Positions 20,650 through 31,998 of a DNA stretch of 64,000 nucleotides are shown here, piece by piece. Made by a program: the position numbers and the translations under genes. Source of the DNA: Mobula hypostoma (lineage: Eukaryota); NCBI RefSeq assembly GCF_963921235.1, contig NC_086108.1:37202001-37266000 (forward strand). Direction: 5' to 3'. The notes below the pieces were generated by a model. That model was not told where the DNA came from and ran no database searches. It saw nothing but the letters and a program-made list of their open reading frames with translations. Positions within the stretch are counted from its first letter, which is position 1. The number at the start of each line of letters is the position of its first letter.

Positions 20650-22645
20650 TAAGACCTTAAGACCAGAAGACAGAGGAGCAGAATTAGGCCATTTGGCCCA
20701 TCAAGTCTGCTCCACCATTCCGTCATGGCTGATCCATTCCCACCCCCCCGCCACCAGACCTCACTCCCCAGGCTTCTCCCTGTAATCTTTGATGCTGTGT
20801 CCAATCAAGAACAAATCAAGCTCTGCCTTAAATGAACCCAATGACCAGGCCTCCACAGCTGCCTGTGGTAATAAATTCCACAAACTCACCACCCTCTGGC
20901 TAAAGACATCTCTCCGCATCTCTGTTTTAAATGGGCACCCCTCTATCCTGAGGCTATGCCTTCTTGTCCTAGACTCCTCCAACATGTGGAAACATCCTTT
21001 CCACATCTACGCTGTCTAGGCCTTTCAACTTTTGAAAGTTTTCAGTGAGAATCCCTTTATCCTTCTAAATTCCAACGAGTACAGCCCAGAGCCATCAAAC
21101 ATTCCTTGTATTTCCTTGTATGATAACCCTTTCATTCTTGGAATCATCCTTGTGAACCTCCTCTGAACCCTCTCCAATGCCAGCACATCTTTTCTAAGAT
21201 GAGGGGCCCAAAACTGTTCACAATACTCAAGGTGAGGCCTCACCAGTGCCTTATAAAGCCTCAGCATCACATCACTGTTCTTGTATTCTGGACCTCTTGA
21301 AATGAATGCTAACATTGCATTTGCCTTCCTCACCACTGACTCAACCTGCGAGTTAACCTTTAGGGTGTTTTGCACAATGACTCCCAAGTCCATTTGCATC
21401 TCAGATTTTTGGATTTTCTCCCCGTTTAGAAAATAGTCTGCACATTTATTTTTACTACCAAAGTGCCTGACCAATGTATGCCATTTTCCACTCTCTTACC
21501 CATTCTCCTAAGCTGTCTAAGTCCTTCTGCAGTCAACCTGTTTCCTCAACACTACCTGCCCTCCATCAATCTTTGTATCATCTGCAAATTCGGCAACAAA
21601 GCCATTTGTTCCATCATCCAAATTATTGATGTACAGCATAAAAAGAAGCGGTCCCAATACCGACCCATGTGGAGCACCACTAGTCACTGGCAGCCAACCA
21701 GAAAAGGATCCTTTTATTCCCACTCGCTGCCTCCTACCAATCAGCCTCTAACCATTCAGTATCTTTCCTGTAATCCATGGATTCTTAACTTGGTAAGCAG
21801 CCTCATGTGTGACACCTCGTCAAAGGCCTTCTGAAAGTCCAAATATACAACATCCACTGCATCCCTTCATCTATCCTATGTGTAATCTCCTCAAAGAATT
21901 CCAATAGGTTCATCCAGCAAGATTTTCCCCGGAGGAAACCATGCTAATTTTGTCCTATTTTGTCCTGTGTCACCAAGTACTCCATAACCTCACCCTTCAC
22001 AGTTGACTTCAACATCTTCCCAATCACTGAGATTAGGCTAACTGGTATATAATTTTTTTTTTCTGATGCCTTCTGCCTTTCTTAAAGAGTGGAATAACGT
22101 TTTCATTTTTCCAGTCCTCTAGCACCATGCCAAAGTCCAATGATTTTTGATAGATCATTAGTAATACCTCCACAATCTCTACAGCTACTTCTTTCAGAAC
22201 CCTAGGGTGCATTATGTACCCTTGGGTCTTTCAGCTTTTTGAGCACCTTCTTCCTTTTAATAGTAAGTGCACTCACTTCTCCTCCCTCGCGCCCTTCAAC
22301 ATCTGGCACACTACTAGTGTCTTCCACAGTGACGACTGATGCAAAATACTCATTTAGTTCATCTGTCATCTCTATAGCCCCTGTTATTATTTCTCCGGCC
22401 TCATTTTCTAGCGGTCCTATATCCACTCTCATCTCCCTTTTATTTTTTTACATACTTGAGAAAGCTTTTACTATCCACTTTGATATTGTTTGCTAGCATG
22501 CTTTCATATATCTTTTCCCTCCTAATGATTCTTTTAGTTGCTCTCTGAAGGGGTTTAAAAGCTTTCCAATCCTCTGTTTTCCCACTGATTGTTGTTTTGT
22601 TGTATGCCCTCTCTTTTGCTTTTACATTAGCTATGACTTCCCCTT
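20650..22645 (-). mobile_element. CR1 LINE ORF2 fragment with 3' end
   Basis: SGAPHGSVLGPLLFMLYINNL..FADDTK; LYKALVRPHLEYCEQFWAP; ELNEYFASV. Confidence 0.9.
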
Positions 22646-23365
22646 TTTTTTTAGACTTAATCTGCAATCCTTCTCAAGACTTCTGCATCAAAGACAACAG
22701 GTTACAACGTTGGGGTCTCCACCATCCATTTTGACTTACATATGTGCTAAATTGGATTCTCATCCCTGTTCTTCTCTCAGTGCTCAAACAGTAGCTGAGA
22801 ATTTCCTTTCAACTTCACTTCTGGAAATACAGTTACTATACTGGCCAAAATTTAACTCAGAACAGATGCGAAAATGAGCCATAGACTTGTCAACATCACC
22901 CACTGGAATATTAAATTGTATGTTAATCAGTTTTCTTGCACACTATGATGATGCAGTGCACTAACAAAAGATGTCTGCTACATGTTGAGTTTGAATTTGC
23001 TCAGACTGAACTTTGAAGAGCAGTTTGAGATTATGTTCAGATGCAAAGTGTATCTTTCTGTCAACTGCAGGAGATCAGTAATTGGAATAAAGAAAGCTTT
23101 CTATGTTACTCACTGAACAACTCAGTTCCCACAAATGGAGTTCTGTTTTCTTTGGCTAGCGAGTAATGTGGTAGCAGTAACATAGACTGAGTTGTCAGCC
23201 CACCCCCGTACTTCAAGCTGAAATGTCTGAGCAGTAGCTCAGTTCACAAAGTGAATGTCTTTGATAAGCTGACTAACAAATTAAATCCTACAGGGTTCTT
23301 ATCTCCGGTGTAACTCTGTGTGCACATCTAGTGGGTGAAAGGATGAAATTACCTCCCTACCTTTT

Positions 23366-24102
23366 CTTTCCTCCCAATATTTTAATTATTAATTTTACAT
23401 ATAAGAATACAGAGTACAAGAGAAAAATATATATCAATACATTAAACTAAATCGCATATAAAGACTCCTTACCCGATATTCATACAGATTAATTAATTTG
23501 TAACATTGAAATATAGTAATTTTATTATATTAAAAGATCTAACCCACTACCAAGACCGAAGCTGATTAGTAAAGAAAAAAAGGAAAAAAAAATTATTAGT
23601 CATCATCTGTGCTTTAACAGCAAATCAAAGGTTTTGAAAATAATTCAAAAAAGGTCCCGACAATGTTTGAAAGTCTTAGCTAGATTCAGAGATTGAACAT
23701 CGAATCTTCTCTAAATTTAAACATGACATCACATCACGTAACCATTGGGGGTGAATAGGAGGGGCCGCATCTTTCCATTTAAGCAAGAGTGTCCTTCTGG
23801 CCATAAGAGACATAAAAGCCAAAATGTGCAAGTCAGATGACCCCAAAATAATAGCCTTTCCTCCATCAACACCAAATAAAGCAGTCAAAGGATTAGGCTT
23901 AAAGTTTACTTTGAAAAGTATCGAGAAAGTTTGAAATACATCTTTCCAATATTTTCTAAGACTCGGACATGTCCAAAACATATGAATGAGTGAAGCTTCT
24001 CCATTATAACATTTATCACAATACAGAGATATATCTAAATAAAAATGAGACAACTTATCCTTGGTCATATGGGCCCTGTGGACCACTTTAAATTGTAGGA
24101 GA
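23366..24102 (-). mobile_element. 5'-truncated L1-clade LINE (ORF2 C-terminal CCHC region plus 3' UTR)
   Basis: CDKCYNGEASLIHMFWTCPSL zinc finger; 11-bp TSD CCCTACCTTTT (23355-23365 and 24103-24113) followed by AA. Confidence 0.88.
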
Positions 24103-27100
24103 CCCTACCTTTTAATGAAATGGGTCTATCAGGAACACATGAATCAGATTACAGTGAAAATACTTATTGTAATAAAAAATTGTGGCTGATATTTCTTTCC
24201 GGAGAAACAGAAGGGTCTTGGCCCTTTATTCTAGCCTGGGATCTCTGTAGACCCACGATGGAGGGAGCAACCACAGACGAGAGAGAGCAAAAGGTATTCT
24301 TTAGCCTTGTGTCTTATTTCCCATTTGAAATGAATGAATAGTGATCTTAAGGCAGATTTCATCGCCACAGAAGATTTGAGAGAGATAATTACCAAAGAAG
24401 GGTATGCAAAAAAAAAAAAGACAGTGGAACATTTTTTTGCTGTCTCTCTTTGGGCTTTCGCATCTGAAGGCTTTCCGGATATTGTTTTTGGACAGCAGCC
24501 AGAAAGAACTGAGACCAACCACAGTTTCTGTTGCTATAGCTCACTCAGACCAACTGGAATAGCTCAGTTTCTGTCCTGAGTCTTAAGTTCAAACCCTGAA
24601 CATAAGCTAGCCTGCAGCAAGGGCAAATTACCCACAATTTCCAGCAGCTTAAATCAATGTAGCAGTATCGCCTTAGGATAATTTCTGTCCACATCTGTAT
24701 GGAGGAAGGCAAAACAGTTGTCCCAGTACACTTACCAACCACAATAACAGGTATGGAATAGAATATCTTATGAAATACACAATCATGTCCTTTATTTAGA
24801 ACAGATATAACAGTTTCTATGTGCTTCTAGTTTGTAGTGGTACAAAGTGGAACTCCTCTGGAGACTGACTTAAAAAGTGCGGTGTGAATTCTCCAAGTTA
24901 CATTCTCAATGACAATATAGGGTACCTGAAATAGTTTATATGACCTTATATGTTATTGTACTTGTTTCCTACACTACAGGATACAGTTGCTCTTTATTTT
25001 TACCATGAAGTTCCTTTATCATGTAGGAACTTTGACTATCTATCCCCCAATATGCTCAACCAAGGCATTTCTGTGCCATATCGCTGCACCCTGATTTAGC
25101 AATTGACTCCTTTTAAAACAAGATTTAGTTCTGATGAATACACTCCTAGATGCCTTGTTTGGTTCTCTTTCAAGTCTCCACTCCATCTAATGGTAAACTG
25201 TATCCTTCTCACCAAGCTTCCTTTCCCTCCTTATTTCCTAAGATCACCCTAACGTACCACTAGCTACCAATCTTCCCAATTCCAAGGACCCCATCATCAC
25301 AAGTGAGACCAACCTTTTCAATACCAACCCATGCCCCAGCAGCTGCCAGTTTCCCCTTTCCTACTGTCTCACTGATCAGTTTATCCACCCATTTGACCCA
25401 ATTTACCTTCCACTCCATTACCCTAATGCCATAGTCTGGACTTTTGTTGCACTTGCCACCCCTACTCTCCGTCCAAGCCCTCAAAACCTAAATCCATTGG
25501 ATTTCCTTTGTTTGATCCACAATGACAGACCAGGCTGCTTCATTTCCCACCAACCCATGCATGAACAAAGTATTTTCTGGTGTGCCTAAACTGACTTTTG
25601 AACCGTACCTGAACAAGTGCAATTCACTTTCAAGATATTGCATCATTAATTAGATGTCGTGGCATATTTTTCCTTCAGTTTTATCTGTATTTACAGAACT
25701 GTGTGAACATATCTCTTTGAAACACTTAATTTTAATATGGACTGAATTATACAATAATTCTCATGTTTCTGCCAGATATCCAATGTACAAGCTTCACTGG
25801 TTTTAATTATGCAACAGAAATTCAGAGAGAGCTCCTCTAGGACATTCACCAAAAACATTCATTTAAATGTTGGGCATAAATTGTCTTTTTTTTTGTGTCT
25901 GGCCAGTTGAATAATTTACCAACCATATGGCCAGAAAATTAGGAATCTAAGTATTGATTATGCAAGTGTACCAGTTGTCTAGAAGCCATTTATAAAACAA
26001 TAATCTTTTAACAATATTAGTAATTTTAATTCTATTAACACTACAAAGCATAACACTCAGAAGTGTAGGTGTATTTAATATTATTTCTTTGACAGGCTAG
26101 CACTGATTTTTTTTTTAGTGATCACATAGTGATCCTGCTCCCAGGATAATGAAACATGTTTTCACTGGAGCACATATTCACAATCAAACCTTCATATTAG
26201 TCTGAGGCAAATTGATACCTTAGCTGGATACTAAGATAAGAAATTAAAATATTTTAAATCCATGCACTGGTAGACATATTTTCTGAGGATGAGGGGTTCA
26301 AATCTGCCTAAAGAAAAAGAAGTCTAATCTTTTTGGACTTGATTTTCTGCATCATTTTCTTAGTAGCAGCAAAGAGCTTGTTGCCAATATCTTTACTTCA
26401 GGTTAAACTTTCCAGATTTGTTTTCCATCCACCCTTTACTCCCTGCTGCATGATTCCAGGGAAATATTCTTCCTGAGCAACTTGCTTGGAAATCTCAATT
26501 CCCACTTTATTTCAACGAAAGCCATTCCTCTGTAAACATGTCAATTACTTTCTCCCCTCTTGCCTGTCATTATTACCTCGGTTCCTCGTTAAGGCAACAT
26601 GAAGGAAATTTTCTTGGCTGTATGGACGTGAGTCACATCAAAGCTGTTATTTGACTGTTTGACAGTAAGTACATTTGTGCAGGTCGCCAATAGCTTTGGC
26701 AGCTGTGGCTGTTCCTAAGTGAACTGCTCTATTACCATGCAGAGCTGCGTCTACAAGCCTGATCTTAAGATCCAGAAATCTGCCTAATGAGGAGAAATGA
26801 GGCGGAACGGTGCATAAGGTTAGAGTTTGATCTTACAGCTTTTCTAAGCTCAAATCTCTGTTGCTACTGAGCAACATTTTTATTAACTTACTGCTTATTC
26901 CAAATAGGTTGAAAAAGCCATTGTGTCAGAAACATTTTATTTGTCACCAGTCTCTGTTGGATTGGGGGTAGGATGCTGAAGGGAATCAGGTTGTATTCCA
27001 CTTGGGATTACATGCCAAAATACCAGTTTAGGAGTTCCTTAACCAATCTAATTGCAGAATTTAATTTCCTCTGTCTCAAAGTCAGTGTTGGAGTTCTCCA

Positions 27101-27719
27101 GATATTTGAAAGATAGAGAATAAAATGAAACAGTAACTTTTCTAATGGGAACTATTAGAATCTTTTAACCTTCTATTGTTAAATTTGCATGAGTAGTATG
27201 GAGGCAAAACTTGATAGTTTCTGGAAACAGGTACTTGATTGCAATTCCTGATTAGCATAAGAATTTAAGAAACAGGAGAAAGAATTGCCCACTCAACTGC
27301 TCAGCTATGTTCCACCATGCAAAAGGATTGCAGCCAATCTATTCTTGGTCTCAGCAACAGATTTCCCACACTCTCCCCATAATGCTTGATTCTCTTGCTG
27401 TTCAAGTGTTCATCAGTCTCCACCATGAATATAAATCAGTGATTATACCTCCCTCCACTGGTCTGTAGGGCAGAGAATTCCAAAAAGGAGAAATCTTCCC
27501 CATCTCACCCTTAAATAGACCATCCCTTTTTGTGAACCTCTGACCTCTGGCTCTGGTCAACCACACCACTGGAAACAATGCCACTTAATTCTGCATTGTC
27601 TCTGAGTATTCACTCTGTCAACCAATCTCAAGTTTCAGAGAGATCATCTCATCTCTCACCTTCTGAACTCTAAAGAATATAGACCCTCATCAACCCTATG
27701 TCTCTTTAGCCCAGAATAT

Positions 27720-27912
27720 AGTTCCAGTGGCTCAAAAGAGGGGAGCCATGGAGTCATAAGTAGCTAGCCATCTGGACACAAGCTGGGGTCTGATCAGCCC
27801 CGGCTGGGTCACCTGGAGGAGGTTGTATGATGTTGAAAGACCTGAAACACCCGATGATTCCAGGAACATCACTGAAGATGTGTCCAGAAGCATCAATAGA
27901 TGTATGTACACA
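27720..27912 (+). mobile_element. 3' end of a HERO/ReO6-like (RLE-type) non-LTR retrotransposon inserted in a degraded CR1
   Basis: Encodes FQWLKRGEPWSHK* (27722-27763), resembling the WLWLKR..PW C-terminus of HERO-type ORFs, followed by a structured 3' UTR. Family call is from recalled similarity, not a search. Confidence 0.55.
27771..27888 (+). ncRNA. Candidate non-circularly permuted hammerhead ribozyme
   Basis: Core strands GUA (27825-27827), GAAAC (27844-27848) and CUGAAGA (27872-27878), with six complementary helices; see findings. Confidence 0.7.
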
Positions 27913-28589
27913 GCTTCATTGCTTCCAATGAAAGTATACCCTTCCTTAAATGTGGACAATAAAACACCAGCATCCTGTAATGTAGCTTCAAATCTTCCCT
28001 ATTCTATATTCGTTGCAGTCAAGATCCCAACATCCTATTTGTTTTTCTAATTACTTGCTGTCATTGCATGCTGACTCTGTATTTTATGTATGAGAACCCC
28101 CTGATCCCTTAGTATTGAAACATTCTGTATTCAGTTCCCAGCCTTGGTCATCTTGCAATCATATCTCTGTAGTGTTTATAAGATCATACCCATTTATATT
28201 CATTTGTGTTGTTAACTCAGCTATTTTGTTATACAATATGTGTGCAGTCAGATAAAGAGTATTGTCTCATCATTTTTCATTTATCTCACTCTATTTGCTG
28301 GTGAAGTCTCATACCTGTAGACTCTTCTTCACTGATTATTGTTTCCCTGGTTGTTGCCCTCTGCATTTTTGCTTTCTGTTTCTCTTGCTTAACATCTCTT
28401 CACCTGAGCCCCTTTATTCTATCTGCATCATAGCCTTTCTCCTTTCTGATTTCAGTCTTAGGTTCCCATTCTAATTACAGTTTCCCAGCTCCTCACCGAC
28501 CCAGAAGTCCTACCGAACAACACTATCAAAACTGCCTCTGACCAGATTTGTCCCATTCCCATTATGATGTAACCACCTGGCTTGCAACA

Positions 28590-29222
28590 GTCTCTGTTGC
28601 TATAGGGATTGAGTTTAAGAGCAGGAAGGTGAATCTGCAATTGTACAGGGTACTGGTGAGACCACATCTGGAGTATTGCATGCAGTTCTCGTCTCCTGAC
28701 TTGAGGAAGGATAGACTGGCTTTGGAAGAAGTGCAGAGGATGTTCACCAGGTTGATTCCAGAGATGAGGGGGTTAGACTATGAGGAGAGATTGAATCGCT
28801 TGGGACTTCAGTCACTGGAATTCAGAAGGATGAGAGGAGACGTATAAACGTATAAAATTATGAAAGGGATAGATAAGATAGAGGCAGGAAAGTTGTTTCC
28901 ACTGGTAGGTGAGACTACAGTAGAACTAGGGGACATAGCCTCAAGATTTGGTGGAGTAAATTTAGGATGGAGATGAGGAGGAGCTGCTTTTCCCAAAGAG
29001 TAATGAATTTGTGGAACTCTCTGCCCAATGAAGCAGTGGAGGCTATCTCAGTTAATATATTTAAGACAAGGTTGGATAGATTTTTGCATAATAGGGGAAC
29101 TGAGGGTTATGGGGAAAAGGCAGGTAGGTGGAGATGATCGGCCATGATCTTATTGAATGGCGGTGCAGGCTTGACGGGCCAGATGGCCCACTCCTGCTCC
29201 TATTTCTTATATTCTTATGTTG
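28590..29222 (+). mobile_element. CR1 LINE 3' fragment
   Basis: LYRVLVRPHLEYCMQF..LEEVQRMFTRLIPEMRGL; ends CCTATTTCTTATATTCTTATG. Confidence 0.88.
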
Positions 29223-31571
29223 CCCAAGAGCTGATTCTAGTTCCTCTGGAATCTAATGCCTTCTCTTCTACACATTCTCCAGCCACACACTCATCTTCTT
29301 TAGCATCCTATTTCTGTACTCACGAACACAAGACTCTGGTAGTAACTTGGATATTGCTACCTTTGAGGTCCTGCTTATTAACCTCTTTCTTATTTTCCAT
29401 ATCTCTGCCTGTTGGACATGATCCCTTTGAACATTAAAACACAGCACAGGCCCTTCAGCCCCTTCTGTTATGCGATCTTTAACCTACTCTAGTCATAGGC
29501 AGCCATTGATCCCAGGGACTGTGTCCTCTCCGGGGCGCAAGCCTGGGTGGGAAGATTTGAATAACCAGCTGTTGCCTATGCAGCAGGTTCCCCCTCTTCA
29601 CGTCACTGATGTAGTCCAAGGGAAGGGCAAGTGTAGTATCGTTGCAGAGATTGCTAGAGTAAAGTTGCAAACAACATCAAACTGCCAAAGGGGCCTACTC
29701 TAAGATGAATTTAACCCTTCTTCCCGCATAGCCTTCCACTTTTCTATCATCTATATGTCTATCTAAAAGTTTCTACCTCTGTCACCACCCCTGGCAGCAT
29801 GTTCCATGAACCCACCACTTTATATGTAAAAACCTTACTGCTGACATCCCCTCTATACTTTCCTCCAATCATTTTAAAATTATGCACCTGTGCCGAGTCA
29901 TTGACAAAAATGGTTTGAACCCAAATGCTGGGGTATCCTAGAAACTCACACACAAAATGCTGGAGGAACTCAGCAGGCCAGGCAGCATCTACGGAAAAAA
30001 GTAGTTGATGTTTCAGGTCGAAACCCATATTCTGGAGAGTTAGGCCATCTAAACCCCAGAAGCTGACATATTTAGGTGCCTGTTGGTATAGGACCCCTTC
30101 CCCTATGGCTGACTCTTGATGGCCCTGGCTGCTTAGAGAGAGAAGATTGTAGTCATGAATGAGAGCCGGATCCAAGATGTTCCTTTCAGGAACTCAGCAC
30201 TGTTCCCCAGGTCCAAATCCTTCCCAGTCAACAAGGAACTGCCGAACACCTCAATCAGTTCATGAATCCAAAATTCTTCTCACAGTGAAGACCTGTTCCC
30301 CATCGGTAAACCTGGGTGGTGTTGGTGGGGCTAAGGGGCTGATGCAGACAGGTTTTAAATCGGTAATGTGGAAAGTGGGATTGATCTCAAAGGTCTTGGA
30401 GAGCTGCAAGGTGTAAGCCATTGGGTTTACTTTCCTGAGAATCCTGAAGAGTCCAATAAACCAGTGCCAATTTCCTGACTCCACGTGGAGAGGCAAATCC
30501 TGAGTCAACAGCCAGACCTGTTACCCAGGCTGCAAAACTGGTCCCTGTCTTCTCTTGTGGTTAGGCTTTAATTCAGCCTTCTGGGTTGAAGCTAACAAAA
30601 TCTCCCTTGCCCTAGACCGTTTCTCCTAGCAGTGTTAGACTTGATCTTCATCTGCAGGGACCCCAACCTCAGCCTCTTGCTCAGGGAAGAGGGGCGTAGA
30701 ATACCCAAACTGGCATTTGAAAGGGGACATCCCATGCACTGAATGTAGTGTTGTGGATAACCTCGGCCCACATCAAATGGTAGCACCACTTGCTCAGTCT
30801 TTCAGAGGCCAGGCACCTTAGGGTTCATTCCAAATCTTGGTTCTGCTGCTCCATCTGGGCGTTATACTGTGGGTGAAACCCAAAGGAAAGACTTGCTGTT
30901 GGCCCAATCAGCTTACAAAACACCCTCCAAAAACACGATGTGAATTGCGGACCACAATCCCACGTAATGTCCACTGGAAAACCATGGATCCTGAAGACCT
31001 GGTTTTGGATGGTAATCTGTCAAAGGCGATGAATTTATGGGCCTTAAAAAAAAATACACATTTACCATGGTAATGGTCTTTTCCTTGGAAGGAGGAAGAC
31101 CTGTGACAAAGTCCATGGAGACTGAGCCCATGGTCTGTGGGGAAAGGCAGAGGGTGAAGAAATTCTTGAGGTTGGGTGCGGGCTCCTTGTTTCAGGTGCA
31201 CATCTTGCATGCCTGCACATATTGATGGATCTCCCTCGCCATTCCAGGCCACCAGTATCTTCTCTTAATGTTCCCAAGGGTCCTAGCAATCCCTGGCTGA
31301 GCTGTCATTCTCAATGCCCATTGAAGAACCTAAGCCTGGATGGGACTCGGAATTAACAGCCGACCCAGAGCGTAATTCTGAGGAATCTCCCTTTGTGCCT
31401 GGGCCTCATGAACAAGTCTGTCAATACCCCAACAAGCTGGTGCTATTACCTTGGTTTGGGGCAAAACATTAGTAAGCTGCTTCTCTCATTCGGGTTCATC
31501 GAACTGTTGGGACAAAGCATCTAGTTTGGAGTTCTTAGATCCTGGTCGATAGGTCAGAATGAAATTAAAAC

Positions 31572-31998
31572 AGCTATAGTCTATGATCAGAGATTAAGGG
31601 AGCTAGGGCTTTACTCTTTGAAGAGAAGGAGGATGAGAGGAGACCTGATAGAGGTGTACAAGATAATAAGAGGAATAGATAGAGTGGATAGCCAGTGCCT
31701 CTTCCCCAGTGCACCACTGCTCAATACAAGAAGACATGGCTTTAAGATAAGGAGTGGGAAGTTCAAGGGGGATATTAGAGGAAGGTTTTTTACTCAGAGA
31801 GTGGTTGGTGCGTGGAATGCACTGCCTGAGTCAGTGGTGGAGGCAGATACACTAGTGAAGTTTAAGAGACTGCTAGACAGGTATATAGAGGAATTTAAGG
31901 TGAGGGCTTATATGGGAGGCAGGGTTTGAGGGTTGGCACAGCATTGTGGGCTGAAGGGCCTGTACTGTGCTGTATTATTCTATGTTCTATGTTCTATG
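31572..31998 (+). mobile_element. CR1 3' fragment nested in the sushi-like pol
   Basis: RRMRGDLIEVYKII..FFTQRVVGAWNALP; (TTCTATG)n tail; candidate TSD TTAAAAC (31565-31571 and 31999-32005). Confidence 0.88.

Follow-up and report, generated by a model that had tools for sequence, protein, structure and literature searches.

The window, by which we mean the whole stretch of 64,000 nucleotides from Mobula hypostoma, contains a short 5'-truncated copy of a LINE, and the 3' UTR of this copy has the core boxes of a candidate hammerhead ribozyme: GTA at 27825-27827, GAAAC at 27844-27848 and CTGAAGA at 27872-27878. The features are as follows, with their roles in the fold being predicted ones.

27727-27914, + strand: 188 nt of a 3.64-kb HERO/Zebulon-group LINE, a copy truncated at its 5' end (from own-genome matches, copy boundaries and a unit length of 3639)
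27728-27763, + strand: end of the RT-CCHC-RLE frame, with its final 11 codons and stop
27771-27780, + strand: 5' strand of helix A, which would clamp the strand after CUGANGA (77.7% paired; 10 of 10 pairs with two-sided change)
27781-27805, + strand: hairpin B, with the palindrome CUGAUCAG in its loop at 27790-27797, a possible kissing loop
27806-27810, + strand: 5' strand of helix C, the putative functional 10.x strand of stem II, with G27806 as G10.1 (93.6% paired)
27812-27817, + strand: 5' strand of helix E, the putative stem I/II interaction helix (81.3% paired; role by analogy)
27821-27834, + strand: block S, with a stem III strand, the GUA site and a stem I strand; predicted cut 27827/27828
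27839-27852, + strand: block G, with the 3' strand of helix C, GAAA and a stem III strand
27859-27864, + strand: 3' strand of helix E (from covariation)
27865-27878, + strand: 3' strand of stem I, then CUGAAGA (stem I 83.1% paired; two-sided change in all 7 pairs)
27879-27888, + strand: 3' strand of helix A, not a canonical stem II arm
27890-27903, + strand: terminal hairpin F, about 11 nt 5' of the fixed 3' end (from folding)

The boxes, the helices and the end of the ORF remnant (...WLKRGEPWSHK*, its TAG at 27761-27763) had been placed by an earlier, sequence-only reading, and on rechecking all are where it put them, with the pairing it gave (stem I 7/7, stem III 5/6, helix A 10/10, hairpin B 8/8, helix C 5/5, helix E 6/6). 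The predicted cut site is 64 nt 3' of the stop codon, inside the 3' UTR. The T at 27843 is a minority base, the 146 aligned own-genome copies having C in 118 cases. A descriptor search of both strands scored the site at 34.8 and the next-best sites in the window at 23.9 and 22.4. Rfam has no relevant match at the site, with two weak ones elsewhere in 24000-31000, and none in eight homologous loci, and a PDB sequence search gave no match. Folding of the single sequence recovers A, B, E and F but misses the pseudoknotted core (z -2.5). A hairpin like F was found by regular expression in 21/39 homologues, and F may be a signal for the start of reverse transcription. With regard to the surroundings, we take 20761-22673 (- strand), 28542-29137 (+) and 31525-31929 (+) to be broken CR1-type LINE frames, 23676-24104 (-) to be an L1/Tx1-like C-terminal remnant, and 30260-31304 to be a broken LTR-retrotransposon integrase-like remnant, in each case judging by the translations.

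A first look at the 3.5-Gb own genome gave 1355 candidate copies of the element, a young repeat, and the 40 scored have 98-100% identity. None of 30 copies examined is more truncated than the one in the window; six of the 30 extend more than 1500 nt farther upstream, and the complete unit is 3639 nt. In the longer copies a single frame encodes RT, a CCHC knuckle and the endonuclease motif RPD..E..K; RVT_1 is matched in the element protein with E 1e-17, zf-RVT falls below cut-off, and CPLC-X7-H-X4-C and RPD motifs can be read in the frame. The HERO clade is defined by frame layout in the accessible parts of PMC2790886 and PMC3636483, and the element has this layout of a single frame with RT followed by C-X2-C..H..C and a PD..D endonuclease. 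The clade is stated in the part of PMC2790886 available to be without a Cys-His motif upstream of RT; the element has, by eye only, a CxCxxxC..H..C stretch near its N-terminus. The element protein is 63% identical to BAC82599 over 827 aa, and a quick tree, built without R2, NeSL and R4 outgroups, groups it with BAC82598 and BAC82599/AAN12398 (SH-aLRT 99). From the species and the consecutive accession numbers, BAC82598 and BAC82599 would be HEROFr and HEROTn, and AAN12398 is presumably Zebulon. Going by its frame domains and place in the tree the element is a LINE with RT and a restriction-like endonuclease, of the HERO/Zebulon group within the R2 group, and the earlier assignment of the motif to the 3' UTR of an RLE-type, HERO-like LINE is supported. 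The 5' UTR opens on a series of short direct repeats whose unit resembles GAC..CCAGGAAAGACTGG (first 110 nt of the oriented unit of L036), and similar repeats are conserved in distant relatives, where they lie just past the 3' end (L149, L157, L161, L179, L181, L191). They are possibly an internal promoter or a protein-binding array.

Metagenome contigs were scanned for relatives; 380 were confirmed and the best 80 of these kept, comprising 79 loci with 41-86% protein identity. We used the 66 loci in which 150 nt or more follow the stop, leaving out the 13 of 79 with a shorter UTR, three of which still parse. The whole motif parses in 53 of the 66, is degraded by eye in seven and absent in six, whereas none of the 66 reverse-complemented UTRs parse. 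A score of 26 was reached by 50/66 real UTRs as against 2/265 shuffles with the core fixed. The parser demanded CUGANGA, AAA and U16.1, and invariance of these in the alignment discussed below is built in, while their presence in 53/66 UTRs is not. Relatives lacking the motif include L188, L194, L197, L186 and L146; L194 and L197 are on a branch of their own, and the ribozyme may thus have been lost or replaced there.

The 58 parsed rows, clustered to 44 non-redundant ones, were aligned by MAFFT on sequence only. In these 44 rows 80.8% of cells in helices are paired, compared with 55.7% after shuffling and 34-44% when the strands are slid, and covariation is 0.606 against 0.199 shuffled and at most 0.176 slid. 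Of the 42 pairs 39 have two-sided changes, and no helix is without compensatory change. As relatedness inflates such counts, double changes were also counted in 19 disjoint sister pairs taken from the tree: 98 keep pairing, against 12-24 in slid controls, with support for all six helices, and 50 disrupt it, chiefly in the least well aligned helices, A and B. RNAalifold unaided picks helix C only.

A G-U-H site in which H is never G, together with a variable N7 and a G-C pair next to GAAA, is the signature of a hammerhead. At the site G and U are each present in 43 of 44 rows, and the third base is A in 11, C in 14 and U in 19, never G, while N7 of CUGANGA takes all four bases (U 24, C 10, A 6, G 4). 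Stems I and III are in register there (A15.1-U16.1 and 1.1-2.1), with U-A in 43/44 and G-C in 42/44, and 1.1-2.1 is paired in 42/44 with 23 two-sided changes. The cut predicted earlier after A27827 fits this rule. Covariation among homologues, which the sequence-only reading had named as the check on its fold, is clearly present, and by this comparative evidence the 3' UTR is shown to fold into a hammerhead core with its parts in the order S-G-C. Hammerhead-type cleavage in the element RNA is in our judgement highly probable on these patterns. In loop B a palindrome of at least 6 nt, of several different sequences, was found in 26 of 36 hairpins, as compared with at most 13 in 2000 shuffles, eight of the 44 rows with the wrong distal register having been left out. 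As the rows are related and 10 have no palindrome, the kissing loop is to be treated as a lead.

The S-G-C order has a precedent in type SGC (HRIMA-1 and variants). In the accessible text of Eckert et al. 2023 (PMC10085705) it has 583 examples from soil and spruce metatranscriptomes, none of them from genomes of known organisms. The authors derive six orders on the assumption that the blocks, including block C, cannot be interrupted, and in their SGC pattern CUGAUGA(U)G goes with CGAAA, and block C consists of a stem I strand, CUGANGA and a stem II strand. The HERO motif resembles what is given there of type SGC in its 5'-3' block order, its core residues and a short linker that connects the strand of stem I to that of stem II, and, as in HRIMA-1, stems I and II are tied at their distal ends by a helix, helix E being likely to hold the position of the 'I' stem. 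It differs in that the stem II strand, which in type SGC follows CUGANGA, is upstream of block S, in the addition of a four-way junction (A and B), and in having as host an animal LINE with more than 1000 copies.

The evidence for this difference is in the alignment. A canonical stem II, after CUGANGA, is at chance, being 43.1% paired against 40.8% shuffled, with its first pair in only 6/44 rows. The +1 register, also tried and rejected, is 55.6% paired, which is above its shuffles, with two double changes in the sister pairs; for helix C the figure is 93.6%. It is helix C, with its 5' strand upstream of block S, that adjoins GAAA, and its junction pair is G-C in 35/44 rows, like G10.1-C11.1, while the base after A9 varies (U 18, C 17, G 5, A 4). 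Helix E pairs the strand after helix C with the strand before stem I, so making contact between stems I and II, and has two-sided change in 5/6 pairs. Chance-level pairing of the canonical stem II, a G-C junction in C and a free base after A9 together indicate an SGC core re-opened between A9 and G10.1, in which block C is no longer uninterrupted. By analogy with known hammerheads helix C probably acts as stem II and helix E ties stems I and II, and the covariation suggests that helix A and hairpin B form a four-way junction over the A9/G10.1 gap. The topology, as read from the alignment, is outside the six permutations allowed by Eckert et al. The earlier proposal of a non-circularly permuted hammerhead, its stem II made of separate strands, is in this respect well supported. 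In the open literature we found no paper in which cleavage is shown for a core with A9 unlinked from G10.1, and type SGC itself was found in open full text in the 2023 paper only.

The genomic copies end, without poly(A), at a fixed point about 87 nt 3' of the predicted cut site. All 83 terminal 3' ends examined are at this point, in a search anchored on the tail and so blind to ends at the site, and 83 of 104 3' ends are in unrelated DNA. There was no signal of a target-site duplication in 53 loci (5.08 against 4.88 +/- 0.13; two 5' breakpoints were mis-set). Microhomology of at least 2 nt between the 3' flank and the sequence that would follow on a circle was seen in 9/83 ends, too little to explain the fixed priming point.

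For the other end of the element we have 91 5' ends (30 of 59 matches of a pattern starting at the junction, 60 of 96 from a second search, and L036), and 86 of these have the element's own 3' end directly upstream, three by just 1-3 nt, possibly by chance. The extension is absent in five, 1-86 nt in 30, 87 nt in one and 88-1323 nt in 55. Thus 55/91 run through the cut site, 50 being long enough for a second whole ribozyme, so that many full-length copies hold two, and one stops exactly at the site. The 3'/5' junction is crossed by at least 8 nt in 53 of 60 loci, which are by eye contiguous there with no untemplated bases seen. There is no pile-up of truncations at the cut site and no step at the junction: by eye, in 71 matches enriched for truncation, 38 truncations fall over about 50 nt, with 6 at 27825-27828 where about 3 are expected. 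In 42 loci with both ends, the extension and the copy's own 3' end share 26 minor alleles, as against 10.1 +/- 2.9 on shuffling; for all sites the count is 62 against 13.9 +/- 4.6, with 20 positions coming from private 10-nt deletions that are common to the extension and the own 3' end in two loci. In L066 and L070, which are internally deleted (about 950-975 nt), the deletion junction peculiar to each unit occurs in the first round and again in the second. These shared private deletions and alleles indicate that both rounds came from one template lineage, and with the read-through that the copied RNA was unbroken at the cut site as well as at the 3'/5' junction. Seven homologous contigs (L129, L136, L162, L175, L179, L180, L181) are also terminally redundant or permuted, with a period of 3.6-3.8 kb. 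No copy with two full rounds was found, the longest extensions being 1323 nt of 3639 and 647 of 974. Contigs from four of 23 sequencing runs, which as contigs cannot show ends or circles, were examined, and depth is 3'-biased in two presumed-RNA runs as in a probable DNA run.

A non-autonomous sub-family of about 950-975 nt retains some 620 nt from the 5' end and, ribozyme included, some 330 nt from the 3' end; its members, which include L042, L066, L069, L070, L075, L095, L112, L121 and L122, are head-to-tail redundant too. L087 and L108 have an inverted segment within the copy, as in twin priming, and in L108 the second segment spans the 3'/5' junction.

A conserved cutter with no cut in the product, and copies that go beyond one unit, are most simply explained by the making of a circle, as in animal retrozymes, and we think it probable from these patterns that the new-topology hammerhead serves a circular-RNA cycle of HERO-group LINEs, with cutting, re-joining and rolling reverse transcription. 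In this cycle the 3' UTR folds into the S-G-C core shown above, with its backbone opened between A9 and G10.1. Transcripts through full-length copies with their own 3' end upstream, which are observed, would be cut after each GUH to give a unit-length RNA starting at the equivalent of U27828 and ending with GUH. Its ends could re-pair by about 26 base pairs (A, C, E and III), which would hold the halves together and so suit re-joining, either by the ribozyme back reaction or by RtcB, perhaps aided by loop-B kissing of two ribozymes. RtcB is the enzyme that circularises animal retrozyme monomers in the account available in PMC7229834. The element protein would then nick DNA, and cDNA starting at a fixed internal point right after hairpin F would go round the circle and beyond, regenerating the head-to-tail redundancy that is the observed footprint; the copy in the window would be an early-terminated product of this step. 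Sequence 3' of the cut site, which is retained in the integrated copies, would be best explained by re-joining into a circle. Against the circle, an active ribozyme within it must be held shut, and the six relatives of 66 without the motif and the seven with a degraded one also count.

The footprint could be accounted for otherwise. If the ribozyme cuts and the template stays linear, RT, on reaching the 5' end, would have to jump to the 3' end of that RNA molecule, across a base-paired nick or at the 3'/5' junction. The R2 RT reportedly carries out synthesis across non-continuous templates, and such jumping would account equally well for the shared private variants; the L097 copy ends exactly at the 27828-equivalent, and the 10-nt deletion of L044 can be placed so as to end at the site. 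However the jumps would have to be near-perfect and base-exact, and the lack of a truncation step at junction or site and of untemplated bases at the junction is against them, so we regard this as unlikely. It is also conceivable, and we think rather improbable, that the hammerhead-shaped fold rarely or never cuts in vivo and is a protein-binding 3' structure, the redundancy being read-through of tandem source loci. All integrated copies are indeed continuous across the site, stem II is non-canonical, and the published SGC ribozymes are slow, at 0.007-0.19 per min in the accessible part of PMC10085705. But over a range of 41-86% protein identity the helices turn over and the catalytic residues and G-U-H rule persist, and inheritance from the parent only would shrink the redundancy each generation, yet it is clade-wide.

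The role given to the motif in the sequence-only reading, that the cut generates the 3' end of the RNA used as template, does agree with its location in the 3' UTR 64 nt past the stop codon. It fails on the copies themselves, which in the tail-anchored search end about 87 nt beyond the site at all 83 ends, while extensions cross the site with no pile-up and full-length copies are redundant, and we consider it very improbable. Independent insertions at the 5' ends of old copies, with the ribozyme unrelated, would give extension lengths like those of ordinary truncated copies, and these do resemble each other. This explanation is largely refuted by the private deletions and alleles common within loci, the 83 of 104 3' ends in unrelated DNA also count against it, and it is hardly credible. 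With regard to the circular-RNA reading, we lean slightly towards its fullest form, in which a hammerhead outside the six permutations, with four strands, a split block C, a four-way clamp and a kissing loop, circularises the RNA of an RLE LINE, and the clade transposes by target-primed rolling-circle reverse transcription, scattering thousands of ribozymes in animal genomes.

In the case of known systems, the element is like other HERO/Zebulon non-LTR retrotransposons in its single RT-CCHC-RLE frame, with no target specificity seen. Bouneau et al. are said to have described partial tandem Zebulon copies in 2003, and the tandem arrangement itself is probably already known. A search of the open literature found no ribozyme or circular intermediate for HERO/Zebulon elements, and in open full text, with subscription journals and Repbase Reports outside its scope, nothing that connects a hammerhead or a circular RNA to HERO or RLE LINEs. 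Penelope-like elements and retrozymes, as far as described in the accessible parts of PMC6765202, PMC7229834 and bioRxiv 10.64898/2026.07.22.740005, are alike in having a hammerhead in terminal direct repeats, partial tandem copies, and cleavage to monomers and circles such as we propose for HERO, but their hammerheads are of circularly permuted types I/III and the elements are of GIY-YIG type or non-coding. We rejected assignment of the element to that group as it has an RT-CCHC-RLE frame instead, and no canonical hammerhead across the head-to-tail junction: none could be built in the own element, and there is one weak candidate in 12 homologues. The HDV-like ribozymes of R2 and L1Tc are also self-cleaving RNAs that free a LINE from a longer transcript, but in the parts of PMC6765202 and PMC13580325 available they are of another ribozyme class, at the 5' end, and define a linear 5' end. 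We conclude from the comparative data that this is a real, clade-wide hammerhead-like RNA with a topology not described before in the open literature.

If this is true it is the first family of non-circularly permuted hammerheads in animal genomes, the stated assumption of an unsplittable CUGANGA block is overturned, and ribozyme searches must widen. It also gives partial-tandem LINEs a mechanism that can be tested, and connects R2-group elements to the circle-based cycle seen in retrozymes and Penelope-like elements. Tools for gene insertion of the R2 type could likewise benefit from a protein able to prime at an internal position of a circular RNA.

In teleosts there are proteins with 80-88% identity to that of the element, a high value for a repeat in fish so distant from one another, and one that suggests horizontal transfer. 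Viral contigs gave no relative. The prokaryotic genome set gave six loci, which are probably contamination; four are long enough to examine and one of these (L211) parses, with the motif at L211:5744-5875 and an element remnant in a 539-kb contig of a bacterial MAG, by contamination or transfer.
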